Source of the DNA: Fonticula-like sp. SCN 57-25
Lineage: Eukaryota
Length of the DNA: 35,585 bases
Assembly: GCA_001724245.1 (NCBI GenBank)
Contig: MEDX01000039.1
Span: 1-35,585, forward strand
Reading direction: 5' to 3'
Below the pieces are notes generated by a model that saw only the letters and a list, made by a program, of their open reading frames with translations, did no database searches and had not been told where the DNA came from. The translations under genes and the position numbers were made by a program. Position 1 is the stretch's first letter. Every line of letters begins with the position of its first letter. Positions 159-33,529 of the stretch are shown here, in pieces.

Positions 159-3100
159 ATGTCGGGCGGCCGCGCAGCGGTGGTTCCGCTCGCGGAGCGC
201 GTCCTTTTCCCTGGCGGCCTCATGAATGTTATTCTCCCCGCCTCCACCTCGTCGCGCTTTCAGACTCTGCTGTCGCAGTCGTTTCGGCCAAAGTCATCGA
301 CGCCGCTGCTTGTTGCCGCTGTCCCCATTGTGGGGGAGAATGCGGCGGCAGTGACGTCGGCCATCATGACGGATGCCTCTGCCGGCTCCTCGCCCCTGCC
401 GGACTTTGGCTGCCTTGCCCGCGTGACGCGCGTTGAGCAGGTCGACTTTCGCGGCGGCATGCGCATCGTGCTCTCTCTCGAAGGCCAAACCCGCGTCTCG
501 ATCTCTGCTCCCGCGATGACCGATGGCTACCTTACCGTGCACGCCAATCCGATTCAAGATGTTCTTCCGAGCTCATCTGACGAAGAGTTTGCCAAGCAAT
601 TCCACGCGCTGCGCTCTTCCGCGCGCAGTCTTCTCCACGTGCTCGTCGACATGCACATCAACAAGAAGGCGCTCATGGAACTCGATCGCCGCGTCGGATC
701 CCTGCCGGCATCGAACCTCGCCGATCTCCTCGTGTCGACCATCTCTTCACCGGCCGAAGAAAAGCTGGCCCTTCTCGGCGAGGCCGACGTAAAGACCCGC
801 GTGGCGCGCGCGACGGTGCTCGTCGACGAACAAACGCGGCTCGCGTCCGTCTCGCAGTCGGCGCTGTCGCTCACCGACAGCATCGCAAAGAAGGAAAAGC
901 GCAGGATGGAGCTGCGCAAGCAGATGCAGGAGATTAGAAAGGAGCTCGGGAAGGGCGAAGGCGACGACGAGGACGACGATAACGAGCTGCAGGGGCTCGC
1001 AAAGAAGCTCGAATCCCTCAACCTCAAGCCAGAGGTCAACAAGGTCGTCCAAAGAAGTACGTTAATGAATTACAAAATTTGTTGAAATGAGCGAAAAGGG
1101 CCATTTTTACTGCTTTTATGAATCTATAATGCTCTAAAATGTGCTCATTTTGTCTACTTTCATCCTTGTTTTGTTATCATTGTGACTCTTTTTCGATCTC
1201 TTTTGGCCTCTTTTATGTTCAAATTGCTCACTTCTTCCCTAGATATGAAGCGCCTTGAGCGCACCAACCCGAACTCTGCCGAGTACGCCTCCCTCCGCGA
1301 CCACCTCGAGCACATCTCCGAGCTCCCCTGGCCCTCCCCCACCCCCCCCTCCACCCCCGACATTGACATTGACCGCGCCCAGCGCCAGCTCGACGACGAC
1401 CACTACGGCCTCGACAAGGTCAAGCGCCGCATCGTCGAGTACCTCGCCGTCCGCAAGCTGCGCCCCTCGCACCGCGGCCCAATCTTGTGCCTGATTGGCC
1501 CGCCCGGCGTCGGCAAAACTTCCCTCGGCCGCTCAATCGCCGACGCGCTCGGCCGCAAGTTTGCGCGCATTTCCCTTGGCGGCGTGAGCGATGAAGCTGA
1601 CATTCGCGGTCACCGCCGCACATATGTTGGCGCGATGCCCGGCCGCGTGGTCGCCGCGCTCGCGCAGGCCGGCAGCGACAGCCCCGTCGTGCTGCTCGAC
1701 GAGATCGACAAGCTCGGAAAGAGTCACCGCGGCGACCCCGCGGCGGCGCTGCTCGAAGTGCTCGATCCAGAACAGAATGGAGCTTTTACGGATCACTATC
1801 TGGGCGTGCCATTCAGTCTAGAGCATGTGCTATTTATAGCGACGGCCAACAGCGCCGATGAAATTCCGCCGCCGCTCGCTGATCGCATGGAAATCATTCG
1901 CATTCCAGGGTACACTTTTGAGGAAAAGGTGCAAATTGCAAAACGGTATCTGTTCCCAAAACACGTGACTGCGTGCGGGCTGGAGCAGGGAAGGTTCCAT
2001 ATGAGTGATGACGTCATCTACAAGTTGGCGTTGAATTATACGCGCGAGCCGGGTGTAAGGTCGCTCGAGAGGCAAATTGCGGCAGTTTGCAGGGGGTTTG
2101 CAGTTGATATTGCAAGGGGTAAAGGAGAGGAAGTGAAAGGAAGGCGCGATATTACTTATGAGGACGTCGAGCGCATCCTAGGAGTACGTATTGGTTTGAT
2201 AGGGTGATGGTTGATGTGAAGTGATATACATGATGATATACATGATGTCTTTTGATATACATGATGTTTTCGATATACATGATATTTCTTGATATGCAAG
2301 ATGTTTCTTGATACACATGATATCATTGATGTAAAGTGATGTACATGATGTTTATTTTTTGATATACTTGATATACATGGTGTCTCTTGATATACATGAT
2401 GTCTCTTGATATATATGATGTCTCTTGATATAAATGATATATTCTTTCTTTGATGCTGACAAATGAAATAGGCACAGCTTTATGATGAAGACTGGCTTGA
2501 AAGGACGGCCGTTTCTGGTGTCGTCATGGGCCTCGCGTGGACATCATCAGGTGCAGGCAGCGTCCTCTTTGTCGAGAGTACGTACTGGGAATGTTATCAG
2601 GGGTGGATTACAGGGAGAAGTGTGTTGAAAAGTGACACTTTTTGGTTGTATTTTATGAAATCTGATCGAGAATTGTCACTTTTGTGTCATTTTTGTGTCA
2701 TTTTTGTGGTACTTTTCACCACTTTTACATCATTTTTATGTCTTTTACCCTCTTTTACCCTCACTTTTCTTCCTTTTCTTCCACTTTTCCTAACCATCCT
2801 TCTTCAGCCACACAGATGCCCGGCAAAGGCCGACTAATTCTCACCGGCCAACTCGGCGACGTCATGCGCGAGTCCGCCCAAGCCGCCATCAGCTGGGTCC
2901 GCAGCAACTCTCCCCTCCTCTCCCCCTGGAACGCCTCCGCCGCCGCCGCCGCGCTCGACACCACCGACATTCACATCCACTTTCCCGCGGGCGCCATCCC
3001 CAAAGACGGCCCGTCCGCCGGCGTGACAATCCTAACGTCGCTCGTGTCGCTGCTGAGCGGCGTCCCCGTGCGCCCAAACACGGCCATGACGGGCGAGGTG

Positions 3101-3343
3101 ACGCTGCGCGGCGTCGTGCTGCCCGTCGGGGGGATCCGAGATAAGGTGCTTGCTGCGCATCGGAGGGGGGTCAAAAGGGTCATCCTGCCGGCGGGGAATA
3201 GGAGGGATGTGGAGGAGGTGCCGGAAAAGGCGAGGAGGGAGATGGAGTTTGTGTTTGTGAGGAGCGCGGTGGAGGTGCTGGAGGCGGCGATTGAGAGGGG
3301 GGAGGAGAGGGTGGAGGAGACGCAGATTGTCAGTAGGCTGTAA
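159..3343 (+). CDS. LONP2: Peroxisomal Lon protease (LONP2/Pln type); exons 159-1056, 1243-2183, 2472-2577, 2808-3343
   Basis: Lon N-domain (RVLFPGG), Walker A GPPGVGKT, Walker [21 protein letters not shown], catalytic KDGPSAG and PVGGIRDK, C-terminal SRL (PTS1). Three GTACGT...AG introns join the exons in frame. Confidence 0.95.
2221..2440 (+). repeat. Degenerate ~19-bp intronic minisatellite (TTGATATACATGATGTCTC-like) in Lon intron 2
   Basis: Repeated GATATACATGAT cores are directly visible. Confidence 0.9.
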
Positions 3344-3456
3344 TTATATTGAATAAAGGATGAGAATATGGGGACAAAATTGGAGACAAAATGGGGTTGT
3401 TTTGGCCTTGTGCATGGTACAATAGTAAGGTTTTTGCTCTGTTTAGGTTTTTGTTT

Positions 3457-3560
3457 ATTGGCAAAATGGTCACTTTTTTAAATATTTATCTTTATGGTTC
3501 ATTGGCAAAATGGTCATTTTATGATATGTTTAGCCTATTGGTCATTGGAAAAATGGTCAT
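3457..3560. repeat. Three copies of ATTGG(C/A)AAAATGGTCA at ~44-bp spacing
   Basis: Copies start at 3457, 3501 and 3544, between two convergent 3' ends. Confidence 0.8.
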
Positions 3561-3735
3561 ATTTGCCTATCATTGGTCGCCTATCATGGGCACAAGGGCA
3601 CTTTGATCATTGACTCTACTGTTGTGTGTTCCAGGCAATTAAAACATTTTGAATGGTCGTGTATATTGAGTGCCCTATAGGCATGTAACCTACTGGTTAA
3701 AACTGCGCGACTGCGCTTGCAAGTCGACTCTTGGC

Positions 3736-4584
3736 TTAGCAGCTCCAGAGCTCGTCGACCCACTCCGGGTGGTCAACAAAGACGTTGCGGTTGTACTGCC
3801 ACGAGTAGATGGCGTTGTTGCGGAACATCTCGCGCTCGGTGACCGGGAAGTCGTGGTGCCACTCGAGGAGCGTGCACAGCCAGCCAAAGTACGGGATGCT
3901 GCCGGTGGACTCGTCGATGACCTCGAGCGTGGGGGTGTCGTTGTCCTGGCCCTGGTTGCGGACCTCCATGTAAAAGATGACGCGCGCGAGCTGGCCCTTG
4001 TAGTCGTCCGGGACCTCCCAGGTGGAGCTGGTGGTGTAGGTGATGACATCGCAGTCGTTGATGTCGTTCTTGTAGGGGAGCAGGCAGACGGCATCGCCGC
4101 CATCCTTGTAGTCCTTGTTGCTGCGCATCGAGTTGACGCGCTTCTCGGCGGCGAAGAGGTGGTGGCCATCAGTGTACGGAACGTCGCCCTCATCGGGGAA
4201 GCCCTTGGACTTGGGCCACACGTGCTCGCGGTTCCAGCCGGTGGTCGAGCTGCCAGTGTCGCGCTGGCTCTTGGGCCAGCTCTCGCCAGTGTACACAAGG
4301 ATCACGTTGTCGGGGTTGGAGGGATCCTCATCGGCCTCCTCGCACATGTCCCAGACGCAAGAGTACGAGTGCGAAAGAGTGCCGTTGGAAAGGAGAAGGG
4401 CGAGGGCAGCGCGCATCTCGCGGGCGTCCTCGGCGGCGTGCACATCGGCGTAGTACACCTCATCGACGTAGGTCGGCGGGCGATCGGGCTTGGTGCACGC
4501 GTTGCGCTCGTTGAGCGAGGGGAGGATGGGCGCAGCGGCCGCAAGCGCGAGGAGCGCCGCAAGGGCAAGGACCACGCGCGCCAT
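3736..4584 (-). CDS. Secreted Endonuclease I family (His-Me finger; Bsn/EndA-like) nuclease, intronless
   Basis: Signal peptide MARVVLALAALLALAAAA. Motifs WNREHVWPKS, TDGHHL, VNSMRSNK, WEVPDDYKGQLARVIFYM, LLEWH and RNNAIYSWQYNRNVFVDHPEWV. Confidence 0.9.
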   Translation of the reverse strand: MARVVLALAALLALAAAAPILPSLNERNACTKPDRPPTYVDEVYYADVHAAEDAREMRAALALLLSNGTLSHSYSCVWDMCEEADEDPSNPDNVILVYTGESWPKSQRDTGSSTTGWNREHVWPKSKGFPDEGDVPYTDGHHLFAAEKRVNSMRSNKDYKDGGDAVCLLPYKNDINDCDVITYTTSSTWEVPDDYKGQLARVIFYMEVRNQGQDNDTPTLEVIDESTGSIPYFGWLCTLLEWHHDFPVTEREMFRNNAIYSWQYNRNVFVDHPEWVDELWSC

Positions 4585-5381
4585 GATCGAGGTCCGGGCG
4601 GGTCGGGGAAAACACGGCGTGCTGCGCGCGGGTGGGCGTCTTCAGTGACGCGATTGGACGAGAGGGGCTGGAGTGGGCCAATCAGAAGAAAGTGGTGACT
4701 CTGCGTGACGATCGTGGGAGACGGCAAGGAAAGAATATGCTGCATATTTGTGGCATACTTTCTGCATATTTCGCGCGCTTTTTGGGTCAAAAGAGTTGAA
4801 CATTTGCCATACATTCATTATATTTATACATTCGTACATTGGAAAAATAGGGGTGGCACGTATTGTAGAGCTCAATAGAGCTCGTCATCGTGCGATATGG
4901 GGCACGCGGGTAGGCGAATGTACACGGGAAACGTCTATAAAGAGGTCAAAAGCTAAGTGCGCTTGGGCGGCGGCAGGCTGATGTTGGCGCGCTGCAGCAT
5001 CTCCTCGGGCGATCCGTTCATATCTACAGTCGCCGCGTGTTAGCGCACGATTCCGGTCAGCGCGGGTGGCGCACATCTCTTGTAGAGGAACCATGAGCTG
5101 AGCGCGAGCAGCGGCAGCGAAAAAGTCAAATACCGCATACTATCCCTGTTGTCAGTCTTCTCCCACACAGCCAAAGGGCGCGCACTAGACGAGCTTTGGC
5201 GTCTTTTTCGCGTCGCCAAAGAATCCCTGCTTGCCGTCGGCCGCCATCGTCGGTCTGAGTCGGTTAGATCTGGTTTGGGTCGGTTAGAGTCGGGTTGCGG
5301 TTGGTTATATTACCTATTTATAGTGTCTTCTGTCAGCACCCCGTCGAACGTGCGGTTGGTGGGGGGTGCGGGGATCGCGAA

Positions 5382-7119
5382 ATGCGGTACTTGTTGGGCC
5401 CTCCACCGGACGCGAGCGTGTGCTCCTCCCCGACGTGGGTGCCCATGCCCGCGTCCTTCCGGGAGGCGCACCTCCTGCTCAGCCCACGCGGCGGCTCGAC
5501 CCCGTCGAACCGCCGCCTTTCCTCGGACAGCTTCTCGAGCGGAGGATCCCCTGGCTTCCTCGAGCGCGGCGGCTTCCTTCGCGGCGGCAGCAACAGCAGC
5601 GTATCGTCTTCGCGCCGACCCGTGTCGACCGCGTCGTCCGTCGACGAGTCCGAGCTGAGCTTTCCGCGCTCGCCGCATCAGGGCGTCGCGGCACTTCAGC
5701 ATGCACTGCCGGCCGACGAGGCGCAGCATGCCGCCGACATGCTGGACGGGAGCGCCGCCGTCAAGGAAGGACGCCTGCTGCTTCGCAAGAGCACAGGCGA
5801 GTTTCAGGCATTCCAATTTATTCTATCCCCGACGCATCTAGCCTACTTTTCAGGGACGAGTGTCGCTGCTGCCGGCATCATCGAGCTCGCCCAGGTCACG
5901 GCGCTGCGCCTTCGCGCCGCCACCGACTACGCCATCGAGCTCGTCGCCAACGGCAGTGCGTAAAAGTGTTGTGTTGGTGCTTATTTAACGCGTTGGCAAC
6001 AGCTCTGTATCTGATCCTGGCCGTGACGCACGTCGCCTGCGAAGAGTGGTTCGCCGCCATCCTGCGCTATTGCAAACCGCACGTCCGCGAAAAGGTTCGC
6101 CTCTGCAAACTAGAATTTTGCACTAACATATGCTCTAGTTGCTTCCTTCGACGATGGACGTGTTGTTCCCTGCACTGGGCGATCGCGTGACTGTCCCTGT
6201 GACGCTGCTCACGCGCGTCCGCGACGTTTTCGCCCCCCTCAGCGAGCGCCTCGCCTACGAAGTGAGCCCCGTAACAGAGTCTGCTTTATGTCTTCGTCGC
6301 GGCGAGCGCGTCGTATGGCTCGACGACGACGACTATATTCTTTCCCCCGCCGTGATCTTCAAATCACACGTGATCGAGTGCCGCCCCCTTTCGCACCGCG
6401 TCGCGATGAACACTGACGCCCACGTGTCCGCCCCCGACGACGTTGTCGGCTTTCTGCGCAAGCAAGGCGCCGACCCGCTCGTGCGCGCCTGGAAGCGCCG
6501 CTGGTTTTTCGTGCGCGGCGAAAACCTCTTTTACTCCAAGCAGCCAAAGGCCGACGGCGACGATCTCGCCGGCGATGCGCTCGGATTCATCAACCTCGAG
6601 TCGGCGCAGTCAATCGAACTTGACCCACGCCACGTGGCCGTATTTTCTATCGTGACGTCATCGCGCGTGTACCGCCTAGAGGCGGCGAGCGACGAGGACG
6701 CCAACGTGTGGGTGGCGTGCCTCGGCCGCGTCATGCACTACTATGAGCGCCAGCGCATGTCTCACGTGACGCCTTGGCTGCATATTGAGATGCGATTGGA
6801 CAGCGCTGTCCAATCAACGTCGTCGAGAAAGGAGGGGTTCATGATGAAGCGCGGCTTTTACAATACAAGATACAAGTCGCGCTACTTTATCTTGGCGGGA
6901 AATGAGCTCACGTACTATGACGCGAGCGAGGGGCGACACTTGAGGGGCAGCATTCCGCTTGCTGGTGCGGTCATTGCCACGCGCGAGCAGGAAGGAGAAG
7001 ATGTTTTCTCCATTGTTACAGAGGCGAGGACGTATTTTTTGAGGGCGCCGTCGAGGGCGGTGCTTGAAGAGTGGATTGTGGCCATTCGGTATGAGCAGCA
7101 GGCTCACGCAAGGGGGTAA
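5382..7119 (+). CDS. Protein with three PH domains and an RA/FERM-N-like segment; exons 5382-5955, 6003-6094, 6139-7119
   Basis: PH signatures VKEGRLL..CEEWFAAI, GFLRKQG..WKRRWF..WVACL and KEGFMMKRG..YKSRYF..EEWIVAI. Introns 5956-6002 and 6095-6138 (CACTAAC branch) keep the frame. The start codon is uncertain. Confidence 0.85.
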
Positions 7120-8081: not shown

Positions 8082-8086
8082 AGGAA

Positions 8087-8323: not shown

Positions 8324-10877
8324 ATGCCAGATCTGAGTCGCGCGTCGCCTTCATCGGCGGTAGTCCCGCTCTCTTCCTCCCCCCCCTCTGTCGCCGTAGC
8401 GCCCCAGAGCGCAGTCGGCGGCCGCGCGTCCTTGAACGCAGCCACGTCATCCGCTGATCCTGCCGCTCCTCGCCGGCGGGTCGCCCTGAGCCAAGAGCGG
8501 ACAGCCGAGCTACACAGCCGCTTCCGGGATCTCCCCGCAGACGAAGTCGCCGCAGCCGACTACTCAGCGTCGCTCCAGAAGGAGATCCCGATACACGGGA
8601 AGCTCTTTGTGTCGCAGCGTTACATTCACTTTTACTCGAATCTGTTTGGCTGGGTGACGGCGGTGAGCATCCCGTTCTCAGACATCCTATCGATCGAGAA
8701 GAAGAACAAGCCAATCTTTGTGAGGAGCGGGATCCAAGTGGTCACACTCACCTCAAAGGTGTGCAATTGCTTTTTGATAATGCGTTTGGGAGGGTTTTTG
8801 TATCGTTTGGCAACTTTTTTGGTATGGTTTGTGCTGCTTTTGTTGCATATGGCCATCATTTTCTGCTGATTTCCAGCACATTTCCAACACTTTTACCACT
8901 TGTCTTTCACCCATTTTCTTACACCCCCTCTTCCCTACAGCACTACTTTGCTGCGTTCCTGAACCGCGACCAGGCCTTCAACCGCCTCGTCAGCTTCTGG
9001 CGCAACAGCCAACAAGAGAACCCCCTCGACGCCGACGAGCTCCTCGGCATCGACGAGTCGTTCCCCTTCGAGTCCGACTCTGTCTTTTCCGACGACGAAG
9101 TGTCCGCCTCGACCGACCTCGCCCGACGCGAGCGCTCCCAAAGCCTCCAAATGGAGCCTTCTTCAGCAACGTCTTCCGTGACGTCATCTGCATCACGCAA
9201 CTTGGCGGGAACGCCGACGGCCGCTTCGTCGTCGTTTTCGGCCGCCGAGCGCGACGCCGACGCGCCGTCAACGCCGGCAAGGTCGCGCGCGACGTCGCGG
9301 ACCGACGACGCAAAGTCGCCGCCGGCGACGCCCGCCGGGGCTGCGGCGACGCCCGCGGCGGTTTCGGCGGCGATTTCGGCGGCGGTTTCGGCGCCTGACA
9401 CGCCCACGTCGGCGACTTTGGCGACACAAGAGGCAGTTGTGGCGGTGCCCGACAAGGCGGTGGAGCCAAAGGATGTCGGGTATGCGCCGCTAAAGACGCC
9501 TGTTTTGGATGTGGTGCTGCCGGCGCCGATTGGAGTGGTGTATGAGAAATTGTTTGATCCGAGTTTGCCGTTTTTTGCGACGTTTTTGCGCGAGAATCAG
9601 CGTCTCACAGGTGCGCAGATTGTGGTATTTTGATATGAAATGTCGGTTTGTCACGCTTTTCTGTGATATTTATTGTTTGATATCCGTTTTTGACTTTATG
9701 TTGCTTGATGTTCATGATAAATTTCCTTTATATATTACCATTTTTGATATGTTTCCCTTTTATTGACCCTTTTCAGATGTCGAATTTGATGCATGGTCCG
9801 TTGACGACCGCGGCCAGGAGACGCGCGGCTACCGCTACATCATGCAGCTGAACGCCGTCATGGGCCCCAAGTCGACACGTGTCAGCAACCGTCAGCGGTT
9901 CATCACAAAGGACCTGCCACGTGGCGTCGTTGTTGAGAATGTTTCCGAGACGCCCGACGTGCCGAGCGGCGACTGCTTCAGGACGGTCAATATGTACTGC
10001 CTCACGTGGGTCGACACTAACAAGACGAGGCTTATCATGTCGGGCGGTATCAACTTTTTAAAGTCAACATGGATCAAGAGTACGCGCAATGAGAGTGTTT
10101 GGGGTTGATTCAGGGGATATTTATGGGTGCATTGATACATTGATACATGTCTTGATACATGTCATACTTCGTTGATATTTTGGATACATGTCATGATACA
10201 TTGATATTTTTGATACATGTGGTAATTTTGATACATGTCACGCTACATTGATAGATGTGATAAATATATGGATCTTTTTCTATTTCTTTTACTTACTCGT
10301 TTTTCAGGCTTTATTGAGACGCACGGTACAGAAGGATTTGTCACCTTTGGCAAGGCACTTGACCGCGCACTTCGCCTCGAACTTTCACCTCGCTCGGCCG
10401 ACGGCGCCCCGGGGGGTGCCTCCCCGACCACCCCCCTCGAGCCGCCGCCGCCCGCCGCCGCCGAGCCACAAGTCGAGTTGCCGCGCGAGGCTTCCACCGG
10501 CATCCTGGCAAAGGCAGAGGGCATATTGGTCAGCCTCGGCGTGCCCCTCAAGCGCGAGCACTTTCCGCGGCTCGCCGTCGCGATCGTGCTCGGCCTCCTT
10601 TTGCTCATCCAGATCAATGCGGTACGCTGATTGGCTAGAGATATAAATGGCGGTTTCTGATTGGTGAATTTCATAGGTGATGCATCTTGGACGGACGTCA
10701 CGTGCGCTGTCGCAGCTTGAGCTTGAGGCCACGCGGGTTCGCGCGACGTGTCCGCTGGCGGAAGTTGGCGTGGCGCAGGCGGCGCAGGTTGAGATGCTGG
10801 CGGAGCGGCTAAGGCGCACTGAGGAAATGATGGAGGAGATGCGCGCAAAGATGATGACAGTGCAGGGGGGGCAGTGA
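8324..10877 (+). CDS. GRAM + VASt (Aster/LAM family) sterol transfer protein with C-terminal TM and coiled coil; exons 8324-8758, 8941-9610, 9777-10079, 10308-10621, 10677-10877
   Basis: GRAM: HGKLFVSQRYIHFYSNLFGW and FLNRDQAF. VASt: ETPDVPSGDCF and KSTWIKSFIE. TM: LAVAIVLGLLLLIQINAV. Four GT-AG introns restore the frame. Confidence 0.92.
10131..10260 (+). repeat. Intronic TTGATACATGTC-like degenerate tandem repeat
   Basis: Multiple TGATACAT cores in intron 3 of the GRAM-VASt gene. Confidence 0.8.
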
Positions 10878-11086: not shown

Positions 11087-12991
11087 TTAAATTTCAGAGA
11101 TGGGCTTGTTGGCGGTCCATTTAAGTGTCCACGCCGGCGCCAGTCCGTCCTTTACAAACTGTTCCTGCTGTTTCCTGACGCGCTCAATAATCGCCTCAAC
11201 TTTGCGCACTTCTAGATCACTATCAAAGGCAAGCGCCGCCTTGACCGACAGCGACGCCAATCCCGGCCCAGTAAGGCACGCCTCTTGCAATGGGTGCTCA
11301 ACAATGACGTCATCATCGTCATATTCACTTTCGTCATTTTCAGCGTCTCTATCATCGCCGCCTTCGTCGTCGGTCCACTCGACGCCCTCTTCTTGCGTGT
11401 ACCACGTCGGCTCAACAGGGGTGAACTTTGGGTGTTTCCGAAGGAAGCGGCGCACTTGACGGGCACCCCAGGAAAGAACGCCGAGCTGGTCAGACCATGA
11501 AACCTTGTTTTCCAGCATGTATGCGCGCAAATGAAGCATGCAAACCGAGTTGAAATTGCAAGTGTCGTCATCGATGGGGACAAGGTCGCCGACGGTCAGG
11601 GAGCAAAGCATATCGCCAGACAAGTCATTGATGACGTCATAGAGATAGATAAGGCGCCAGTCTTGAAGGAGAATGCAAAGTTGATCTGAAGAAAGGGCCG
11701 AAATGCCAGTACCATCTATTAGAAGTTTGTCAAGTGCGGCCAAGCGTTCAGTTTCGTCGGTGGTAGCGTGTCCAAGAGCGACCTTTGATCGAAGGGAAGG
11801 GTCAAAGAGCATTACGTCACCATCGCGGCCTACTGCAAGCAGTCCACTTGAGGGATGATACGTGCCATGTGCTTCATCCTAGCGATGAAAGACATACTGT
11901 TAACAACAAAATAAAAACAGTTTGATACACGCAGTATCGCTTAACAAACAATAAAATATACACGTCCAAACACGTCTGCTTTGTCGTACCATTAAAGGAA
12001 CGCAGAGAGCGCCGTCCAATGTGCCGGTTTCGGTGGACCATACTTGTATTGATCCGTTCGATGTCACAGTCACGACGTACTTGTCATTCGCAGTAAACGC
12101 GCACGACGTGACGGTATCTCGTACAATTGACGTGTCGGGAAAAAGGCAGAAATCACCCACGTTTGGTTTGCCTTCTTTAATTTCAACGTCTGCAGCAAGT
12201 GCGAAAAACGTGCTGGCCGCCAAGAACGCCTGTCCATTGCTAGAGAACGATACATCGTACGCCTACCAAGCAGAGTGTGAGTGCACCAAAGGGGTATTCG
12301 CAGAAAAGCGCACGTCTGGAAGGTCGCTGGAATTGAGACTGTCATATGTGGTCGTCTCGTTTGGATGTGCGTTGAATGCAAAGACAACTTCGCCGATAGC
12401 GAGCAGCTGTCCGTCTGGAGAGAACCGCATAGGAACAGGGGCATGGAGGTCAGCAAATAGCTGCAGCTTTTCTTCCTTGAGAACGGTATAGTCGGCGTTT
12501 ACGTCTAGCAAGTAAAGGGTCGGGCGAGCGAGTACCGCCAGTGTGGCGCCAGAGGGATGGAACGCACAACCGTGAAGCTATCGGCGCAGTCAGCGACAGA
12601 GACGCAATACCGAGACACGTACCCCGATCGCGTTTCCGTCGCGTGCCATTACTGAGCGGTGCAACATTTTGCCGTCAGAAGTGAAAGCCGCAACGATCAA
12701 TTGTGAAGGTCCCATGTCGTGCATTGGGCTGCACGCCGTCACAGCGAAGCGCGTTCCGTCCGGCGCCCACGAAAGGCCGCTCGCCGTGGTGTCGTTCGGG
12801 AGCGGGATGTCGTAGACGACGGCGGCGGTACTCGTTTCCCAGATGCGAACGACATTCCTCGAGCGCCAAGCGCAGGCTAAATACTGGCCGCTCGGGCTGA
12901 ATGCAAACAGACGCACCGACGAGCGTCCAACAAACTCGTCGCCAATGGGCAGCTTGCGGATCTCGCTCCAGGCCGGGGCGACGGCGGACAT
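11087..12991 (-). CDS. WD40-repeat protein with two C-terminal SAM-like segments; exons 12991-12623, 12577-12314, 12262-11990, 11878-11087
   Basis: WD blades FAFSPSGQYLA, LSWAPDGTRFA, CAFHPSG, RFSPDGQLLA, VSFSSNG, CAFTANDKYVV and YHPSSGLLAV. SAM-like LSSDQLCILL..LSGDMLCSLTVGDL and SWGARQVRRFL..LTGPGLASLS. Three phase-0 introns. Confidence 0.8.
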
Positions 12992-13388
12992 TCCCTGACG
13001 ATTACTCGGAAACACGCGGGCGAGCTTTGGGCGAAAAAGAAGAACAAAGGGGATACGTTAGCGATGGCAATCGAGCAAGTCCAGGCAGCATGCGCACTCA
13101 GGTGCGGCTCGGGTGTCAACAGGCGAGGGAAACCCCGCTGCTGCCCCTGCGGCCAGGGGACTTTCAGAGTGCAATTCGACTCTATCGTTGCCAATCCTCT
13201 CATATTGTAGGCGAGATTTCTCTACTCGAATAAAAGCGACTTAAGACGATTTTTACAATCAATTAATCAGGAGAGGAATCCGCCACATTGAAGACATTTT
13301 ACTGACCACATCGCCGCTTAGCGCATACTTGTGGCTCCTATTCCAACTCATATATATATTCAAAATGTACAAGCGCGCGTTCGCGCGT

Positions 13389-15186
13389 CTATTCCGCGGC
13401 TTGCGCGGCCGCGATCTGCTGCCTCGCCGCCTTGATCGCCGCCGCCTTGCCCGCCCGCCGCACCCTCACCTCCTCAGCACCTACGTGGTCCGCCGCTCCC
13501 CTCGCGTAGTTGAACGCCCAAAAGTCAAACAGCGCGAGCGTCTCTGCCGCGTGGATGGCGCTCGTCTCGCTTGCGTCAAACAGCGGGTTGACAAACGCGC
13601 GCTTCTCTGCGCGCAGCGTCGCGACGGCGTCCCAGATGCACGCCGTCCGCCCGTCGGCCTTTGCGGCGGCGCGCTCGGCAGCCGAGTCAAAGAGAAAGTC
13701 GCCAAAGGCGCCCGACCGCGCGTGGTCGGCGACAAAAAGAAGCAGCGAATCGTCGTACTCGAACGCGCGCGGGTTGGCGCGGACCAGCTGGTGGAGCGCG
13801 TCACAAAATACGAGGAAGGCGGCGCCGAGCGCGCGGCCGCTCTTCTTTGCCCACGCGTGCCGCGTGCCAAAGGGGAAGCCGTGACTGAAAGCACGAGTTA
13901 GAAGATGCAAGTGTGTCAGCAAATGCGTACGAGAGCCACTCCTTTTGGATGAGCACCGCGAGGCCGTTGATAGTGCGGTAGTACGGGTCGACGAGCACCT
14001 GCGCGAGCGACGCAATGATGCACGCGCGGTCGGGCGACGCGTCCTCTTGCACCAGCAACACTGACGTCTATCCACATGATCAGCAAAAGAAAATTTAGAG
14101 AAGAGATTCGCACCTTGGCTGTGAGGAGGTCGGCGACACGGTTGGCCGCGGCGAGGAAGCGCGTGACTGTAAGCGGCCACTTTGACGCGTCGAGGTCGGT
14201 AAAGAAGCGCGTATCGTCCTTGCTTGTCGGCTGCAGGCAGAGCGTGCTGAGTGCGGACCACGCGGCGGCGATGCGGTCGACGCTCGGCACCTTGACGCTG
14301 AGCGAAGCGAGTGGGACGTCGGCGCCGCCCAAGGGAACGCTGCCTTCGGGGTGCGCCTCGAGCGAGAGCGCCGCCCAGGGACCATTGCCAAGGGCGCCGA
14401 GGTACGCGCGGCCGGCCGCTCGTCCAATGGGTGTGTCGCTGTCGGTGAAGCGTCCGCTACGGACGAGCAGGGATTGGTCCGACCCCCACGCGAGGGCAGG
14501 GAGACGGTGCGCGGAAAATGACTTTGCCGCGTTGACGGCGGCGCTGTCCTCCACGGCCGCGGGGACAATGAGCGCGGGACCATACGCGGGACACACTGCA
14601 AACGCGCTGTTCACCGCAGAGACGCGCCACGCGCCGCTCGAGGTCCGCCACCGCGCCAGCTCGGCCGACGCATCATAGACGGCGCCCCGATGCGAGGGCG
14701 ATGGGCGATAGTCAAACGCAAAGAGACGCTCGACGTTACCGGAAAAGGCGTATTGCGAGAGACTGTCGAGAAACGTGTCCGTGGCGCCCCGCGGCTCATC
14801 GGACAGAGTAAAGATGATGCGCTGCAGATCAGACGTCTGAAGCGAGAGCGTAAAGACGCCCTTGTCGCGGGACGACTTTATGGAAGAAATGTGCGCGAGG
14901 GCAGTGCTACAAAGATCCGGCAGGTGGGGAATAAAACCAAGGGGCTGAAAGAGGCGCGTCAGAGAACAGATCTCAGGGGATGCCGAGGCCGTACGGAGCG
15001 CTGCGATCCGGCAGGCACAAATATTAGACGGTAGTTGGTGAGCCAAAGGTTTCCGGTAGCAACCGTGTCTGTGGCGTTCGGAAGCCACCGTGTACAATTC
15101 TCCACCATACGAAGCGTCACTTCGCCATTCTCGACATCGGCGGCGGTGAACGAGGCCGCCGGCGCGCCCTTGTTCTTTGGCGCCAT
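13389..15186 (-). CDS. Myotubularin-related protein, predicted catalytically inactive; exons 15186-14995, 14944-14114, 14067-13931, 13884-13389
   Basis: PH-GRAM GNLWLTNYRLIF; LFAFDY, WRVSAVN..VCPAYG, LAQVLVDPYYRTINGLAVLIQKEWLSHGFPF, QLVRANPRAFEY and FGDFLFDSAAER. The HCSDGWDR position reads QEDASPDR. Confidence 0.9.
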
Positions 15187-15471: not shown

Positions 15472-16559
15472 ATGCTGCGGGTCGGCGCTACGGCGATGCG
15501 GGCGGCCGTCCAGGTCCCCTTTTCTCACCCCGCGCGCCTTCTCATGGCCCGCTCGATGAGCTCCTTTTCGTCAAACAACATTGTGCGCGACCGCCCGCTT
15601 CCCGTCAACACCATCGTCAAGTTTGTCCCTCAGCAGGAGGTGTGGATCGTGGAGCGCTTTGGCAAGTTCCACCGCATGCTCAAGCCCGGCCTCAATGTTC
15701 TCCTGCCCTTTATTGATCGCATCTCGTATGTGCAGTCGCTCAAGGAGATCGTGATTGAGATCCCGACGCAGGCGGCCATCAGTAATGGTACGAAAAAGGC
15801 CGCGTGATCCTCTGTGCTGACACATGATGTCTAGACAATGTGGCGCTTCACCTGGACGGCGTGTTGTACCTTCGTGTTGACGATCCGTACAAGGCCTCGT
15901 ATGGGGTTGAGGACACTGAGTATGCCGTCGCTCAGCTTGCGCAGACGACGATGCGCTCTGAAATCGGCAAGCTTAATCTCGACAACACGTTCAAGGAGCG
16001 CGATCGCCTCAATCACGCGATTGTGAGCGCCATGAATGATGCGTCATCGGCGTGGGGCGTGACGTGTCTCCGCTACGAGATCCGCGACGTGACGCTTCCC
16101 GATGACATGATGAAGGCGATGCAGATGCAGGCGTCGGCCGAGCGCCGCAAGCGCGCGCAGATTCTCGACTCTGAAGGTTCGCGCCAGGCCGAGATCAACA
16201 TCGCCGAGGGTCGCCGCCAGGCGGTCGTGCTCGCGTCCGAGGCCAAAATGCTCGAGACGACCAACTTGGCAAAGGGTGAGGCGGCGGCGATCGAGGCGCG
16301 TGCGAGCGCCACGGCGCAGTCGGTCTCGCGGATCAGCGAGGCGCTCCGCACTGCCGGCGATCAGGGCACGCAGGCAATGTCGCTCAGCGTCGCCGAGCGC
16401 TACGTCGACGCGTTCGGGCAGCTCGCAAAGTCGAGCACGACAATGCTGCTCCCGAGCAACGCGGGCGACCCGGCCGCCATGGTCGCGCAGGCAATGGCCG
16501 TAGTCACACAGATCAACAAGACCAACTCGGCACAGGCGGCCGACAGCAAAAAGAACTAA
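15472..16559 (+). CDS. STOML2: Stomatin-like protein 2 (SPFH/Band 7), mitochondrial; exons 15472-15787, 15835-16559
   Basis: Presequence; FVPQQEVWIVERFGKF, DPYKASYGVED, QLAQTTMRSEIG, WGVTCLRYEIRD and AERRKRA. 47-nt intron 15788-15834. Confidence 0.95.
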
Positions 16560-18499: not shown

Positions 18500-21400
18500 A
18501 TGGCGACAGGTGCGAAAATTTCCTTTTCCCTTTTTTTTCCTTTCCACCCCCTGGGTATTGTTTTCTTTCCCCATCGTGCTGACGCGACGGTGTAGTTTTG
18601 GACGACGCCCAGGATGGCCGCCGCGATGCGGATGCCATGGACTCTGAGCGCCGCCACCGCATCGCGCACGAATACCTTGTGCGCATCGGTGAGGCCAAGG
18701 AGTGGATCGAGGCGTGCATCGACGAGGATCTGCCCCCGGTCGTCGATATGGAGGACGCCCTCACCAACGGTGTCTACCTCGCCAAGCTCGCTCGCTTCTT
18801 TGCCCCCAAGAGCGTCAAGAAGATTTACGACGAGAAGCAGGAGCAGCCGCTCAACCTGCGTCACTCGGACAACTTCAACTCTTTCCGCGTTGCCTCCCTC
18901 AAGGCCGGCCTTCCCCTGGTACGCCCACGCGCATTCCTTTGATCGACGTTTGTCTAACGCTGCGCAGACGTACTTTTTCGAGCTCACGGATCTGTACGAC
19001 AAGAAGAACATGCCGCGCGTGATTTACATGCTCCACGCCCTGAGTCACTTCCTCGCCAAGAAGGGCATCGCTCCCAGGATCAACAACCTCATGGGCCAGC
19101 TCTTCTTCACTGGTACGACCACGCTGCATTTTATCATTTTTTTCTGACACACCATGTACAGATGAGGAGCTTGAGCAGGCGTCGCGCAACCTTGGTAACC
19201 TGCAGATGCCGTCGTTCGGCGACCTCAACGCGTCGCTCGACCGCGAGCTCGGCGAGCCGACCACCGAGAACGAGCGCATTCGCCGCGAAGTTCGCGAGAG
19301 CCAGGCTTCGTACGAGGGCCGCGTGGCCGCTCTCCTCGAGTGGGCCCGCCAGGCCACCGAGCAGGTGTCCCAGCCCGTCTCGTCGACGATGACCTTTGCC
19401 GCCCTCACGCAGGCGCGCGCCGCCCACGACGAGTTTGTCAAGTCGGATTACACGCCGCACAGCTCGGAGAAGGATCAGCTGCTCGCGATCTACAACGAGA
19501 TCAATGAAAAGCTCAAGTCGCACGACATGGGCGAGTACGAGGTCGGCGAGATGTTCTCCCCGGCCAACATTACCAAGGTGTGGGGCGATCTCGACAGCGC
19601 CATTGCTGCTCGCCTCGCCGCCCTCGACTACAACTCGCGCCGCTTCAAGTATGACAAGGAGGCTGGCGAGCACGTTGACTGGCTCGGCGAGGCCACCGCG
19701 CAGCAGAACACGCGCGAGTTTGTCGGCCAGTCGTCGCGCGACGTCAACGCCGAGATCGAGAAGCAGGCCGCCTTTGCCTCTGGCGAGAAGGCCACGCGCA
19801 GCGGTCACCGCGACCAGCTCGCGTCCGACATTGCGTCGCTCCGCTCGGACTCTTCCTACACTGCCCCCGCCGGCCGCTCCGACGAGGACATTAAGAAGCT
19901 CTGGGCCGATCTTGAGGCCGCCGAGGCGAGCCGCAACGCCGAGCTCCAGCGCCAGCTCGAGTTTGCCAACCGCCGCGAGGCGTTTGAGGGCAAGTCGGAG
20001 GCTCTCGGCGAAAAGTTCCGTCTCCAGGCCCAGGCCTACGACGACCGCTCGTTCCCCGAGGACCTCGAGGCCATCAACGCGCTCATCGCCGGCCTCCCCG
20101 CCGAGCGCAGCAAGGTTGCTGCCCAGCGCGGCGAGATTGACTCGCTCCGTGGCGAGTATGACGGCATCAACAATGACTTCAAGTACATTGCGCCGATCGG
20201 CCGCAGCATCAGCGACGTTGAGGAGCTCTACGCTCAGATCGAGCGCGCCATTGACAACCGTCAGCGCGCCCTCGAGGAGAAGAAGCGCATGCTCGACGAC
20301 GCCGCTCGCGCCAAGCACTTCCGCGACAACGAGACCTCGATTGAGCAGCTGCAGGCCAACCTCCGCGGCTGGCTCGGCCGCAAGCACCACGCCGAGCGCC
20401 TTGCGCTCCTGCGCGAGAAGGAGGAGCTCTGGGAGAAGATCCAGGCTATTGCGCGCGGTAACGCCGTTCGCCGCCGCATCCGCGACATGAAGAGCCACTA
20501 CGCCGCGAATGTCGACAAGGTGATCAAGGCTCAGGCCGTTGTCCGCGGCCACCTTGCCCGCGAGCACTACAAGATGCTCACGAGCCGCGACAACCCGCCG
20601 GTCGACACTGTCCAGCGCTTCCTGTACCTGCTCGACGAGAGCGAGAAGGACTTTGACGAGGAGCTCGAGCTCGAGCGCCTCAAGTACCTCGTGGTGACCA
20701 ACATTCGCGAGAACGACAAGCGCGAGGTTGAGCTCAACCACCTCGACATTAAGATTGCGCTCCTTATTCGCAACCGCTCGTCGCTCGATGAGATTGTCGA
20801 GTCGACCAAGAAGTACCTCAAGCAGCAGAAGAAGGCCGAGGCCGCCGACTCGAACAACCTCAAGGTGCTCGACAAGGATGCCCGCCAGCGCCTCGAGAGC
20901 TACCAGCACCTGTTTTACCTGCTGCAGACGGAGCCCAAGTACCTTGCCAAGGTCATGACCGAGCTCGCCACCAAGGAGACCAACATCAAGTTCCTCGAGA
21001 CGGTCGTCCTGACCCTCTATGGCTATGCCCAGAACGTGCGCGAGGAGTACCTCCTCCTCAAGCTGTTCCAGAACGCGCTCCACGAGGAGATGCTCAACGT
21101 CACCGACGAGCAGGACATTCTCCGCGGCAACCCCGTGTTCATCAAGCTTGTCGTGCACTACACGCGTGGTGCCCGCGAGCGTCAGTTCCTGCGCGAGCTG
21201 CTGCAGCCGCTCGTCCTTGAGGTGCTCGACCGCGACGACCTCGACCTTGACGTCGACCCGCTCTCGATCTACCGCATGCTTATTCGCGAGGAGGAGTCGC
21301 GCTCTGGTGAGAAGAGCACCAAGCCGTACGATGTGTCGCGCTCGCAGGCCGTCGAGAGCGAGGAGGTGATGAAGATTTTCGTCAAGCGCCTCAAGGACCT

Positions 21401-23303: not shown

Positions 23304-24284
23304 CTACTGCATGGCGGGCTCGTACTTTTTCGCCTCGAGCTTGTTGCCGCTCGCGGCAAACGACGACGCGCCCTTTTGCAGCATGATGATGTCGGCGTCG
23401 GTGAGCTTTGTCCCGTCGATCGGGTCGCACATGTCCTTGCGGACGGTGTGCTTGACGGCGTCCGCCGACACCACGCGCCCCGATGGCCTGAGCACCGCGA
23501 CGGGCGTGCTGTCCGTGAGCGTCTCGAACGTGATCGGGCACATCCAGCGATGCTTGCTGGTCGCCGTCGACGCGGCATCACCATTGACGGGCGTGAACTT
23601 TACGCTGATCAGATCTTTGACGCGGAGCTTCTTGCCAGAAAAGGGGCACGTCGTGGTCTGGTCGGGCCGCGCGACGGGGGCAGTGCTACCAGTCGACACG
23701 GTCGGCGTATTGTGCGGCACCCAGAAGCTGCCCTGGGATGCTTCGCTCGGGCCTGACGACCCCGTCGATGCCGACGTCGAGACGGCGCTCTCAAGGCGGC
23801 GAAACTCGGCGATCTTGTCGCGGCCCACAGCTTCCTCAATGGCACGGCGCTCGCTCTAGATGGGCGTTAGGAGATGCGGGAAAGCTCACGCGGGCGCACC
23901 TCTTGTTTCCGAATGCTCTCGTCATAGAGTTGTTTTAGCTTGGCCATCTCGGCCTTTTGGTTGAGCAGGACAGTCAAGATCGCCTCGCGATCGTAGAGAT
24001 ATCCATGTTGACTGGAAATAAAGAGTATAAGAAAAAGACCAATAGAGAAAAGCGGCGTACGTGACGACGGGATCGCGGGGATGCTGCAGTGTCAACCAGC
24101 AGGAATCCCAGTGCCGCTGCGAATCTTTCCCTAGCCGCATCACCTGCGTGCCATATCCGGCCACTTTCGAGTCGCGCTATGTTAGAGTGTCAGCACACAA
24201 AAAGGCAGCAACCAGGCCACGAACCGTCCTCTCATAGGCCGTGTAATAGTGCAGCGCCGCGCTATTCTTCGAGTGCTTGCCCAT
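23304..24284 (-). CDS. NOSIP: Nitric oxide synthase-interacting protein (split RING/U-box); exons 24284-24225, 24176-24061, 24011-23900, 23855-23304
   Basis: MGKHSKN..YTAYER, GYGTQVMRLGKDS, DPVVTQHGYLYDREAIL, SFWVP, CPFSGKKLRVKDL, CPITFETL and LQKGASSFA. Confidence 0.93.
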
Positions 24285-24527: not shown

Positions 24528-25664
24528 TTACGACGCGCCAAAGACGGTGTTGAGCTGCTGTGTGACGCGAATGAAGGTGGTTCTCTTTGAGAGCTCCTTG
24601 AGGTGCGCCGCTCCGACGTACGTGCACGACGAGCGCAGCCCGCCGAGCAGGTCGTTGATGGTGTCCTGCACCGGGCCGCGGTAGGGCACCTCGACGGTCT
24701 TGCCCTCTGACGAGCGGTACTCTGCGACGCCGCCCTTGTAGCGCGTCATGGCCGTCGTCGAGCTCATGCCGTAAAAGATCTTGTACTTGCGGTTGTCGCG
24801 ATCGACGATCTCGCCGCCGCTCTCATCGTGGCCGGCAAACATGCCGCCAAGCATGACAAAGTCGGCACCGCCGCCAAACGCTACAAGAAAAGTTGTCAGC
24901 AAAAGTAGTGTCAAAGAAAGTCGCGCGTACCTTTGGCGACGTCGCCCGGAACTGTGCAGCCGCCGTCGGCGATGATGTGGCCGTTGAGCCCGTGCGCGGC
25001 GTCGGCGCACTCGATGACGGCAGACAGCTGCGGGTACCCGACGCCCGTCTGCTTGCGCGTGGTGCACACAGAGCCCGGTCCAATGCCGACCTTGACAATG
25101 TCGGCGCCTGACAGGATCAGCTCCTCGACCATCTCGCCCGTCACGACATTGCCGGCGATGATGGTGTGGTTGGGGTACTTGGCGCGCACCTTGCGGACGG
25201 TCTCCACGAAAAACTCAGAGTAGCCGTTGGCGACGTCGAGGCAAATCATGTTGACGTTAACTTTTTGCAGGATGCTGTCCATGAGGTCGAGGTCGACCTG
25301 GCCGACGCCTGATGACACAGCAGCGTACTGGAGCAGCTCGGGATGCTCCTCGGCGAGCTCGCACCACTCGGCCAGCGTCGTGAACTTGTGAAGGACGGTG
25401 ATGAGGCGGTTCGCGCCTAGCACGCGGGCCATACCCACGGTGCCGACCGTGTCCATGTTGGACGCCATGATTGGGACGCCCGTCCATGTCGCCTATCAAA
25501 TGTCACGTCAGCATCAGGGGGTGACTAAGCAGCGGGCGTACCTTGGAGTGGCGGAAGGAAAAGGTGCGCACAAGGTCAACATCCGCGCGGCTGGCAATGG
25601 TGCTGCGCTTGGGCCGGATGAGCACGTCCTTAAAGTCAAGCTTGATGTCGTTCTCGATTCGCAT
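24528..25664 (-). CDS. GMPR: GMP reductase (E. coli GuaC/human GMPR type); exons 25664-25542, 25492-24931, 24880-24528
   Basis: [77 protein letters not shown] and [12 protein letters not shown]. Confidence 0.96.
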
Positions 25665-25755
25665 GATGCCTGGAAAACTTCACGGGGCACCAGGGGGTCA
25701 AAGGTGGAATGAACAACAAAAAGCTGATGCAATCAGTTAACTACGTGTCAGCAAG

Positions 25756-25780
25756 TTCCGGAATCAATCATTCCGGAATC
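25756..25780. promoter_or_regulatory. Duplicated TTCCGGAATC motif in the 140-bp GMPR/UTP7 divergent gap
   Basis: Palindromic TTCCGGAA at 25756 and 25771, each followed by TC. Confidence 0.5.
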
Positions 25781-25804
25781 TCGCAGGTGTGATCAGTAGT
25801 CATC

Positions 25805-27390
25805 ATGGCCGAGCGGTACAAGCGCGGGACGCCGACCGGCGCTGGCCGCGGCGCGCATCCGCGCCTCAAGCGCGAGATGAGTCGTCATGAGCGCGAGGCG
25901 CACAACGCGGCTGAGCGTGCTGCAAACGCCGAAGTGCTGCTGCCGACCGATGCCGGTCTGCTCGAGGCCGAGGGCATGGAGCGGACGTACAAGTTTACAC
26001 AGGCGGCCATCCGCGAGAGCGTCGACATGGCCGCGGCGCGCAAGGGATTTGACCTCGCGCTCGACCAATTCGGACCGTACCGCACGAATGTTACGCGTAA
26101 TGGTCGTCACCTTTTGCTCGGCGGGCGGAAGGGGCATCTCGCCTCGTTTGACACTGCATCGCACCAGCTCGGGTTTGAGCTCCACGTGAAGGAGACTGTC
26201 CGCGATGTACAGTACGGATCGCGTCTATTCCGGCCTGCACGACTGGTACTAACGCCCTTTACTTTAGCTGGCTTCATAACGAGAGTCTCTTTGCGGCGGC
26301 GCAGAAAAAGTATGTTTATATATATGATCGGACGGGCGCCGAGGTTCATCGGCTAAAGCATCACACGGAGGCGTCGCGGCTCGACTACCTTGATCACCAC
26401 TTTTTGCTAATGTCGATTGGCGACGCGGGCATTCTGCGTTTCCAGGACACGTCCACCGGCGAGATCGCCGCCGAGCATCGCACGCGCCTCGGCCCGTGCG
26501 ATGTCCTTGCGCACAACCCGCAGACTGCCGTCGCGCATCTGGGCCACGGGAACGGCGTTGTTTCTCTGTGGACACCCACTGTGTCGACGCCGCTTGTCAA
26601 GATGTTTTGCCACCGCGCGCCTGTGAGCGCCGTGGCGCTGGACGCGACGGGCCACTACATGGTGACTGCTGGCCTGGACCGCCAGGTCAAGGTGTGGGAC
26701 ATTCGCACGTACAAGCAGGTGCACGCGTACGCCGTCAACACGGCGCCCGCCACGTCGCTCGACATTTCGCAGCGCGGCCTGCTGGCTGTCGGCTCTGGCG
26801 GCCACGTAAACATTTGGCAGGACGCGATCCGCAGCAAGGCGGCTGCGCCGTACATGTACCACGCGCTGCCTGGGTCGCGCGTCGCGTCGCTTTCGTTTGT
26901 GCCGTACGAGGACGTGCTCGGCGTGGGGCACGAAAAGGGTTACGCGTCGCTCATTGTGCCGGGCGCCGGAGAGCCCAACTTTGACGCGTACGAGGCGAAT
27001 CCCTTTGAGAACCGCAAGCAGCGGCGCGAGACCGAGGTCAAGCGGCTGCTCGACAAGATCCAGCCCGACGCCATCTCTATGGACCCCAACGCGATTGGCC
27101 GCGTGGCCAAGACAAACAAGGAGGAGCAGCTGAGCCGCGCGCAGGCGAGCGCAGAGGCCAACAACGCGGACGGCGAGCCGTTTGTGCCGAGGAACAGGAA
27201 AAGGGGAAGGAGCTCGGCAAAGAGGAGATTCCTGCGCAAGCAGCAAAACGTCATGGACACGCAGCGGAGCCTTATGCTCGAGGAGCAGAAGAAGCGCAAG
27301 AGGACACCGCAGATGGAGGCGCAGGACGCGGCCGACGAGGCGGCCGTTTCGGGGCCCGCGCTCTCGCGCTTCAAGCGCACCCGCGCATAG
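25805..27390 (+). CDS. UTP7: U3 snoRNP protein Utp7/WDR46 (BING4); exons 25805-26211, 26268-27390
   Basis: GLLEAEGMERTYK, TRNGRHLLLGGRKGH, WLHNESLFAAAQKKYVYIYD, HLGHGNG, FVPYEDVLGVGH and VPGAGEPNFD. Intron 26212-26267 has a TACTAAC branch point. Confidence 0.96.
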
Positions 27391-33450: not shown

Positions 33451-33529
33451 TTAGTTCAATATATTGTCTTTCCCCTCTTTGCTTTACACTCACTGGGTTG
33501 GTAATAGTTATTATTTTTACCCAGGTCAA

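Follow-up and report, generated by a model that had tools for sequence, protein, structure and literature searches.

Genes and introns of the window

The window, the whole 35.6-kb stretch of DNA that was analysed, holds 15 recognised genes, 11 of which contain introns. These 11 encode a Lon protease, a small protein, a PH-domain protein, a GRAM/VASt protein, a WD-repeat protein, a myotubularin-related protein, stomatin-like protein 2, an IQGAP, a NOSIP-like protein, a GMP reductase and UTP7/BING4. Reading-frame continuity enabled the reconstruction of 27 introns (Table 1), 13 of them on the minus strand, and all 11 spliced models stay open across every junction.

Table 1 Introns reconstructed in the window and the observations on each
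Intron	Position	Strand	Length (nt)	Donor	Observations
Lon protease, 1	1057..1242	+	186	GTACGT	GC 0.33; gap-free against 7 Lon homologues
Lon protease, 2	2184..2471	+	288	GTACGT	GC 0.29; 19-nt tandem repeat inside; junction gap-free
Lon protease, 3	2578..2807	+	230	GTACGT	Junction gap-free; Lon_C profile continuous, about 46|47
Small-protein gene, 1	5140..5185	-	46	GTGCGC	Sole frame-compatible GT donor; CTGAC 16 nt from 3' end
Small-protein gene, 2	5024..5074	-	51	GTGCGC	Sole frame-compatible GT donor; CTAAC at -20
PH-domain gene, 1	5956..6002	+	47	GTGCGT	Last possible donor before stop codon
PH-domain gene, 2	6095..6138	+	44	GTTCGC	Top coding score; last possible donor; CTAAC at -16
GRAM/VASt, 1	8759..8940	+	182	GTGTGC	Exception (+4 T); GRAM profile ends at last residue before 8759; top coding score
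GRAM/VASt, 2	9611..9776	+	166	GTGCGC	VASt match begins at exon start, at most 1 residue off; last possible donor
GRAM/VASt, 3	10080..10307	+	228	GTACGC	Tandem repeats inside; VASt match ends at exon end, at most 2 residues off
GRAM/VASt, 4	10622..10676	+	55	GTACGC	Top coding score; last possible donor
WD-repeat gene, 1	12578..12622	-	45	GTACGT	Frame and signals only; CTGAC at -16
WD-repeat gene, 2	12263..12313	-	51	GTGCGC	Frame and signals only
WD-repeat gene, 3	11879..11989	-	111	GTACGA	Acceptor side: homology to a relative's ORF (P0248) starts at first residue of next exon
Myotubularin-related, 1	14945..14994	-	50	GTACGG	Frame and signals; CTGAC at -18
Myotubularin-related, 2	14068..14113	-	46	GTGCGA	Top coding score; colinear with MTMR2 chain save a one-residue loop difference
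Myotubularin-related, 3	13885..13930	-	46	GTACGC	Exons join without gap at residue 255 of chain 4y7i_A
Stomatin-like protein 2	15788..15834	+	47	GTACGA	Band_7 continuous 55|56; gap-free against 5 junction-spanning homologues
IQGAP, 1	18510..18595	+	86	GTGCGA	Behind 10-nt first coding exon; frame and signals only, 3 GT candidates
IQGAP, 2	18919..18967	+	49	GTACGC	Exons join at 132|133 of chain 3i6x_A
IQGAP, 3	19113..19161	+	49	GTACGA	Donor side: IQGAP1 CH domain homology reaches residue before donor
NOSIP-like, 1	24177..24224	-	48	GTTCGT	Gap-free against 3 homologues
NOSIP-like, 2	24012..24060	-	49	GTACGC	Gap-free against 3 homologues
NOSIP-like, 3	23856..23899	-	44	GTGCGC	Gap-free against 3 homologues; sole GT candidate
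GMP reductase, 1	25493..25541	-	49	GTACGC	Exon 1 stops at residue 64 of chain 2ble_A, exon 2 continues at 65-66
GMP reductase, 2	24881..24930	-	50	GTACGC	IMPDH profile continuous 224|225; sole GT candidate
UTP7/BING4	26212..26267	+	56	GTACGG	Exons join at about 243-244 of 7mq8_LW, 158-159 of 5wlc_LW

The donor pentamers are GTACG (16), GTGCG (8), GTTCG (2) and GTGTG (1), that is, GT[A/G/T]CG in 26 of the 27 introns, with GTGTGC at 8759 as the sole exception. C at +4 (C 26, T 1) and G at +5 (27/27) are near-fixed and are the two most fixed positions of the donor; A is absent from +4 in all 27. Position +3 is A in 16 donors, G in 9 and T in 2, and the last exonic base (-1) is G in 15, A in 7, C in 4 and T in 1, while +6 is variable and leans to C (C 14, T 6, A 5, G 2). 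The same donors are found in the 19 short introns, of 44–56 nt, and in the eight long, AT-rich ones (86–288 nt, mean GC 0.36). An earlier note on this DNA had derived the GT(A/G/T)CG rule from 24 of 25 introns in ten genes, and the independent rebuild reproduces it in 11 genes, down to the donors cited as examples (GTACGT at 1057, 2184 and 2578, GTGCGC at 9611, GTTCGC at 6095 and GTACGG at 26212) and the position of the exception. Its statements that +4 is never A, that +5 is always G and that the rule extends to AT-rich introns are likewise borne out; its description of +6 as free holds in that all four bases occur there, but not in the lean to C.

All 27 introns begin with GT and end with AG, and the acceptor has a pyrimidine at -3 in every case (Y-A-G). 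A search of the last 30 nt detected the branch-site-like motif CT[AG]A[CT], of the YTRAY kind, in 19 introns, starting 9–20 nt before the 3' end, and one-letter variants of it in the same place in the remaining eight. Donors of minor (U12-type) introns are of the RTATCCTT type. This class was rejected, with no such donor among the 27, G at +5 throughout and +3 to +5 reading NCG or GTG. The introns are real, and they are very probably ordinary major (U2-type) GT–AG introns with a strict, transformed 5' signal.

Donor choice and chance

In the sense exons, GTNCG accounts for 96 of 1,134 GT dinucleotides (8.5%), and against this background the probability of at least 26 GTNCG donors in 27 is 3e-27. 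For a donor-choice control, each acceptor was fixed and all frame-compatible, stop-free GT donors were enumerated, giving 133 candidates across the 27 gaps. In 16 gaps no further candidate follows the chosen donor, and in 4 it has no competitor. The choice-corrected probability, that at least 26 gaps hold any GTNCG candidate, is 2e-14. The GTNCG rule is not due to chance.

A codon-usage score blind to the donor sequence ranks the GTNCG donor top in 12 of the 27 gaps, with GC donors also permitted, and is too weak to place donors unaided. Nor can the pentamer alone define a donor, because GT[AGT]CG also occurs 64 times within exons on the sense strand. Alignment to homologues, Pfam profiles or solved chains crosses 12 of the 27 junctions without a gap, six further junctions are supported from one side, and the basis of the other nine introns is reading frame and splice signals only. 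That the donors were picked to fit the motif, with the true splice sites elsewhere, is highly improbable: frame continuity alone permits the 133 candidates and the codon-usage score failed to resolve many gaps, but GTNCG is the donor at all 12 junctions fixed by gap-free homology and the only candidate in four gaps, and chance would rarely supply such candidates so widely (P = 2e-14).

The host and the reading of C at +4

In a protein tree, the stomatin-like protein pairs with a protein 80% identical to it (support 99/94), and Fonticula alba joins next (93/88). No Thecamonas is present among the best 120 stomatin-like matches listed, and the window is therefore not from Thecamonas or a close relative. 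Against the Fonticula grouping stands Lon, whose closest named relatives among the best 120 matches listed are chytrid fungi, at 61–63% identity, with no Fonticula among those 120. Two further genes of the window, for a cytochrome bc1 chaperone and for a mitochondrial ribosomal protein, point to aerobic mitochondria. The host is probably an aerobic, Fonticula-related protist on the fungal side of the opisthokonts, a placement drawn from one protein tree.

The best explanation, and very probably the right one, is that these are U2-type GT–AG introns with a strict, transformed grammar in a Fonticula-related host that belongs to the +4C class of lineages. The donor in this host would be G-U-R-C-G, with +6 free but C-leaning, followed by a CTRAY-type branch motif 9–20 nt before the 3' splice site and a Y-A-G acceptor, at a preferred minimal intron length of 44–56 nt. 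From one 35.6-kb window, we infer that the rule extends genome-wide. The published systems considered here are represented by excerpts of three reports (PMC2483917, PMC10581693 and bioRxiv 10.1101/2022.06.08.495308). By analogy with Thecamonas and the Mamiellales, we lean towards a standard U1 (ACUUAC) and U6 (ACAGA), with the +4C preference set at another recognition step; the odds of a standard against an altered U1 are drawn from a handful of published lineages rather than from this organism's data. An Rfam search of the window gave no match at the gathering score or at E up to 1, and no snRNA gene.

A co-evolved U1 with a G facing +4 (ACGUAC for ACUUAC), with which GUACG would form five contiguous Watson–Crick pairs, is a tentative alternative. 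GTACG, the commonest donor (16/27), complements CGUAC exactly, and +4C and +5G are the positions closest to fixation; a standard U1 would be expected to pair only with +1 to +3 and +5, and -1 is G in just 15 of 27. A precedent is the U1 candidate of Mastigamoeba balamuthi, which reads ACGUAC where the donors prefer GUGCGC (bioRxiv 10.1101/2022.06.08.495308). However, the same excerpt gives a standard U1 despite +4C in Thecamonas trahens and five Mamiellales, and ACUUACC is reported as invariant in 236 U1 candidates identified among 240 species (Parker et al., PMC10581693).

We consider it unlikely that, as in budding yeasts, the +4 preference moved because METTL16, which writes m6A on U6, or SNRNP27K was lost or altered. 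In Saccharomycotina, loss of both, or of Met141 of SNRNP27K, goes with a change at +4 (PMC10581693), and +4A is indeed missing from the 27 donors. The published association, however, is with a switch from A to U (Parker et al. 2023), and here the shift is to C, with U at +4 in one donor of 27. The excerpted text states no prediction for +4C, describes A/U versus G/C variation at +4 as much smaller and does not explain how a U6 adenosine lacking the methyl mark would come to prefer C (PMC10581693). Neither gene lies within the window.

Less likely still is a regional rule, with the GTNCG grammar confined to part of the genome, much as half of chromosome 2 escapes the strict signals of Ostreococcus. 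In Ostreococcus lucimarinus, two populations of introns in different genomic regions differ in their 5' consensus (PMC2483917), and the sample here is 35.6 kb; but GTNCG is common to 11 unrelated genes, to both strands and to both classes of intron size and composition.

The case bears on how the 5' splice-site consensus and the spliceosome change together. In the excerpted literature the +4C cases are split, one lineage having an altered U1 and two retaining the standard form, and U6 methylation is linked to the best-studied +4 switch, the yeast change from A to U. The host would add a further independent, near-fixed +4C lineage on the fungal side, and with it one more natural test of the link between +4C and U1. 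Were its U1 to read ACGUAC, the host would, going by the excerpts, provide the first example in opisthokonts and the third independent co-change of U1 and splice site after Entamoeba and Mastigamoeba. A gene finder trained on GTRAGT donors would go wrong on this genome, for which GT-N-C-G, then CTRAY, then YAG, at 44–56 nt, may serve as a usable gene-finding model.

Comparison with known +4C lineages

With C at +4 in 26 of 27 and G at +5 in all, the donors match the +4C-dominated class and probably represent a new instance of this already described class of lineages, which shows both U1 outcomes (Roy and Bowser 2022, bioRxiv 10.1101/2022.06.08.495308). The earlier note took the near-fixation to suggest altered 5' splice-site recognition, through a variant U1 or U6 or through loss or change of METTL16 or SNRNP27K. 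One ground on which it would have given up that reading, a +4C preference on record across relatives whose U1/U6 are standard, holds for distant lineages but not for close relatives of the host.

Ostreococcus donors are +4C-dominated (GTGCGTG; PMC2483917), and the Mamiellales Ostreococcus lucimarinus and Micromonas have strict GTGCGTG or GYGCGY donors and an ACTGAC branch motif (PMC2483917; bioRxiv 10.1101/2022.06.08.495308). As here, +4C and +5G are found in nearly all introns, the branch motif near the 3' splice site is strict, and short introns lie in a GC-rich genome. In contrast to the window, where +3 is A in 16 of 27 donors and +6 varies, these excerpts give G at +3 and fixed +6 and +7. 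The Mamiellales are green algae, unrelated to a Fonticula-like opisthokont, and their U1 is reported as standard.

Mastigamoeba balamuthi shares +4C, +5G and a common C at +6, and its introns, put at about 2.5 per gene in the excerpt, compare with the 27 found in the 15 genes of the window. This species is an anaerobic amoebozoan, whereas the window encodes the bc1 chaperone and the mitochondrial ribosomal protein and shows the Fonticula grouping. Thecamonas trahens, an apusomonad near the base of the opisthokonts, has the same +4C preference, the strictness of which is not quantified in the excerpt. The +4U donors of Saccharomycotina (GUAUGU) resemble those described here in a lineage-wide shift from +4A and in strict signals, with no compensatory snRNA change needed according to the excerpted account (PMC10581693). 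The yeasts, however, switched from A to U, a base able to pair with the U6 adenosine, whereas the C found here has no standard pairing with it.

Donor sites of the 27 introns

The gene models reconstructed from the sequence contain 27 predicted introns in 11 genes, on both strands. All pairs of GT or GC with AG that leave the frame open were enumerated in every gap separating two coding frames. Frame continuity by itself leaves many donor choices per gap, and a codon-usage segmentation that was blind to donor sequence proved too weak to place donors and was replaced by homology combined with a candidate-count test. Twelve of the 27 junctions are gap-free by homology (Table), every one with a GTNCG donor, that is, with C at intron position +4. 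Six further junctions have one-sided support, and nine introns were placed on frame and splice signals alone. The WD-repeat gene has no homology support for introns 1 and 2, because a search of representative sequences with its last exon returned four matches, none of which is a full-length homologue. Two other candidates were rejected. One is a PH-domain gene intron at about 5808, across which the frame stays open; the other is a GTGAGT donor near 7390 (minus strand), situated within the open frame of the gene for the cytochrome bc1 chaperone.

The donor pentamers comprise 16 GTACG, eight GTGCG, two GTTCG and one GTGTG. Position +3 is A in 16 introns, G in nine and T in two, position +4 is C in 26 and T in one, and position +5 is G throughout, with C (14), T (6), A (5) or G (2) at position +6. 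The last exon base is G at only 15 of the 27 sites. The single exception, GTGTGC at 8759 in intron 1 of the GRAM/VASt gene, is supported on its donor side by a GRAM profile match that stops at the last exon residue. All 27 acceptors read YAG, and a CT[AG]A[CT] branch motif starts 9-20 nt before the 3' end in 19 introns, with one-letter variants in that same zone in the remaining eight. The introns fall into a short class (19 introns of 44-56 nt, mean GC 0.50) and a long, AT-rich class (8 introns of 86-288 nt, mean GC 0.36). The GTNCG rule is common to both strands, to 11 unrelated genes and to both classes.

With the acceptors fixed, the 27 gaps contain 133 frame-compatible, stop-free GT candidates; in 16 gaps no possible donor lies beyond the chosen one, and in four there is no other candidate. 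GTNCG makes up 8.5% of GT in the exon background, at which rate the probability that at least 26 gaps would merely contain a GTNCG candidate, allowing free choice among candidates, is 2e-14. An earlier note, drawn from 25 introns in 10 genes, had claimed near-universal GTNCG donors; the claim is confirmed far beyond chance by the count of 26 of 27, this choice-corrected probability, the homology and the consistency of the signal, and the donor examples named there and the single exception are all correct. Within sense-strand exons there are also 64 GT[AGT]CG pentamers, and on the two strands together the combined donor, branch and acceptor pattern has 79 matches at unannotated sites, so the pentamer is necessary here and insufficient to define a donor. 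Judged from these signals, the introns of the window are ordinary major-type introns that carry a strict, transformed 5' signal in this lineage.

Gene content and phylogenetic placement

The window is nuclear DNA of a eukaryote with GC-rich exons, and 15 protein-coding genes were recognised between 159 and about 30,300. The final 5 kb (30400-35585) is poor in genes and has several A-runs.

Table. Genes and other features of the window, with the junctions that are gap-free by homology. Comparison chains: 2ble_A for GMP reductase, 3i6x_A for IQGAP and 4y7i_A for the myotubularin-related protein.
Feature	Position	Strand	Junctions and remarks
Lon protease gene			three junctions, against 7 homologues
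Tandem repeat in Lon intron 2	2234-2438		19-nt unit, 10.7 copies; AT-rich intron
Tandem repeat	3431-3564		43-44-nt unit, about 3 copies; AT-rich spacer after Lon gene
Endonuclease_1 (PF04231) protein gene	3739-4584	minus	intronless; N-terminus hydrophobic, signal-peptide-like, secreted-looking
Small-protein gene			
PH-domain protein gene			
Ubiquinol-cytochrome c chaperone (cytochrome bc1 chaperone) gene	open frame covers about 7390	minus	
GRAM/VASt protein gene			
Tandem repeats in GRAM/VASt intron 3	10132-10238		18-29-nt units; AT-rich intron
WD-repeat protein gene	11090-12994	minus	
Myotubularin-related protein gene	includes 13885-14113	minus	intron 3, at residue 255 of 4y7i_A
Stomatin-like protein 2 gene			one junction, against 5 homologues
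Mitochondrial ribosomal protein S26-like protein gene			
IQGAP gene			intron 2, at residues 132/133 of 3i6x_A
NOSIP-like protein gene			three junctions, against 3 homologues
GMP reductase gene			two junctions, at profile positions 224/225 and residues 64/65-66 of 2ble_A
UTP7/BING4 gene			one junction
Hybrid histidine kinase gene			
RT_RNaseH_2 retroelement fragment	32932-33450	minus	
Tandem arrays	33948-34109		12/23-nt units

Six of the eight long introns are found in the Lon and GRAM/VASt genes. The repeats in intron 2 of the Lon gene and intron 3 of the GRAM/VASt gene have a similar GATACATG-like core; otherwise minimal introns could have been lengthened here by a shared minisatellite or by a mobile insertion. 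The myotubularin-related protein, aligned with MTMR chains, has Glu at the position of their catalytic CX5R-loop residue and is probably a pseudophosphatase without catalytic activity. The last 263 residues of the WD-repeat protein look like a lineage-restricted domain: 1.84 billion representatives yielded only three relatives besides the window's own protein. The look-up of the IQGAP exon in the ESM Atlas gave a family-level match only.

The best named relative of the stomatin-like protein is Fonticula alba (71% identity); the top match has 80% identity and the rest of the matches listed are near 56-66%. In a maximum-likelihood tree of this one gene, the window protein pairs with the 80% protein (support 99/94) and the pair then joins Fonticula (93/88), apart from fungi, animals and their relatives. 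For Lon, the best named relatives among the matches listed are chytrid fungi (61-63%). The predicted cytochrome bc1 chaperone and mitochondrial ribosomal protein genes point to aerobic mitochondria and exclude both Mastigamoeba and Entamoeba as the source. Parvularia atlantis was also rejected as the source, given the 8.58 introns per gene reported for it (PMC9492541) versus 27 introns in 15 genes here.

In exon-level ORFs from relatives, homology starts exactly at exon starts of the window (15835 and 11878), with identities of 80% (ORF P0003), 63-67% (P0248) and 28-36% (P0249), and the residues before the homology look like intron read-through. Homology that begins at exon starts indicates that intron positions are common to the window and these relatives. 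No relative was found in metagenome contigs scanned with the IQGAP exon or with an alignment of the WD last exon from the window and two relatives.

Recognition of C at +4 and published lineages

By a count of possible base pairs, a standard U1 could pair with only positions +1 to +3 and +5 of GTNCG donors, and a standard U6 with only +5. Positions +1 to +5 of GUACG would all pair with a U1 of the sequence ACGUAC. A U1 candidate with this sequence is described in Mastigamoeba balamuthi, together with GUGCGC donors; the same study assigns a standard U1 to Thecamonas trahens, which prefers C at +4, and to five Mamiellales with GYGCGY donors (Roy and Bowser 2022, bioRxiv 10.1101/2022.06.08.495308). 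In the published +4C lineages, as these sources describe them, changed and unchanged U1 split one to two, and a changed U1 in the host lineage, one of the causes proposed in the earlier note, is a possible but doubtful explanation. An Rfam search of the window gave no match at the gathering score or at E values up to 1, and no snRNA gene. Involvement of METTL16 or SNRNP27K in the preference, also proposed in the earlier note, is unlikely. Across 240 species, variation at +4 is described as almost only A versus U, and the pairing sequences of U1 and U6 as invariant (Parker et al., PMC10581693).

A literature search of article texts turned up no account of donor motifs in Fonticula or nucleariids. 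Introns of Ostreococcus lucimarinus outside chromosome 2 are reported to have an "atypical consensus GTGCGTG" and the branch motif GACTGACG (Irimia and Roy 2008, PMC2483917). The window is a further case of the already described lineages with +4C donors, rather than a separate kind.
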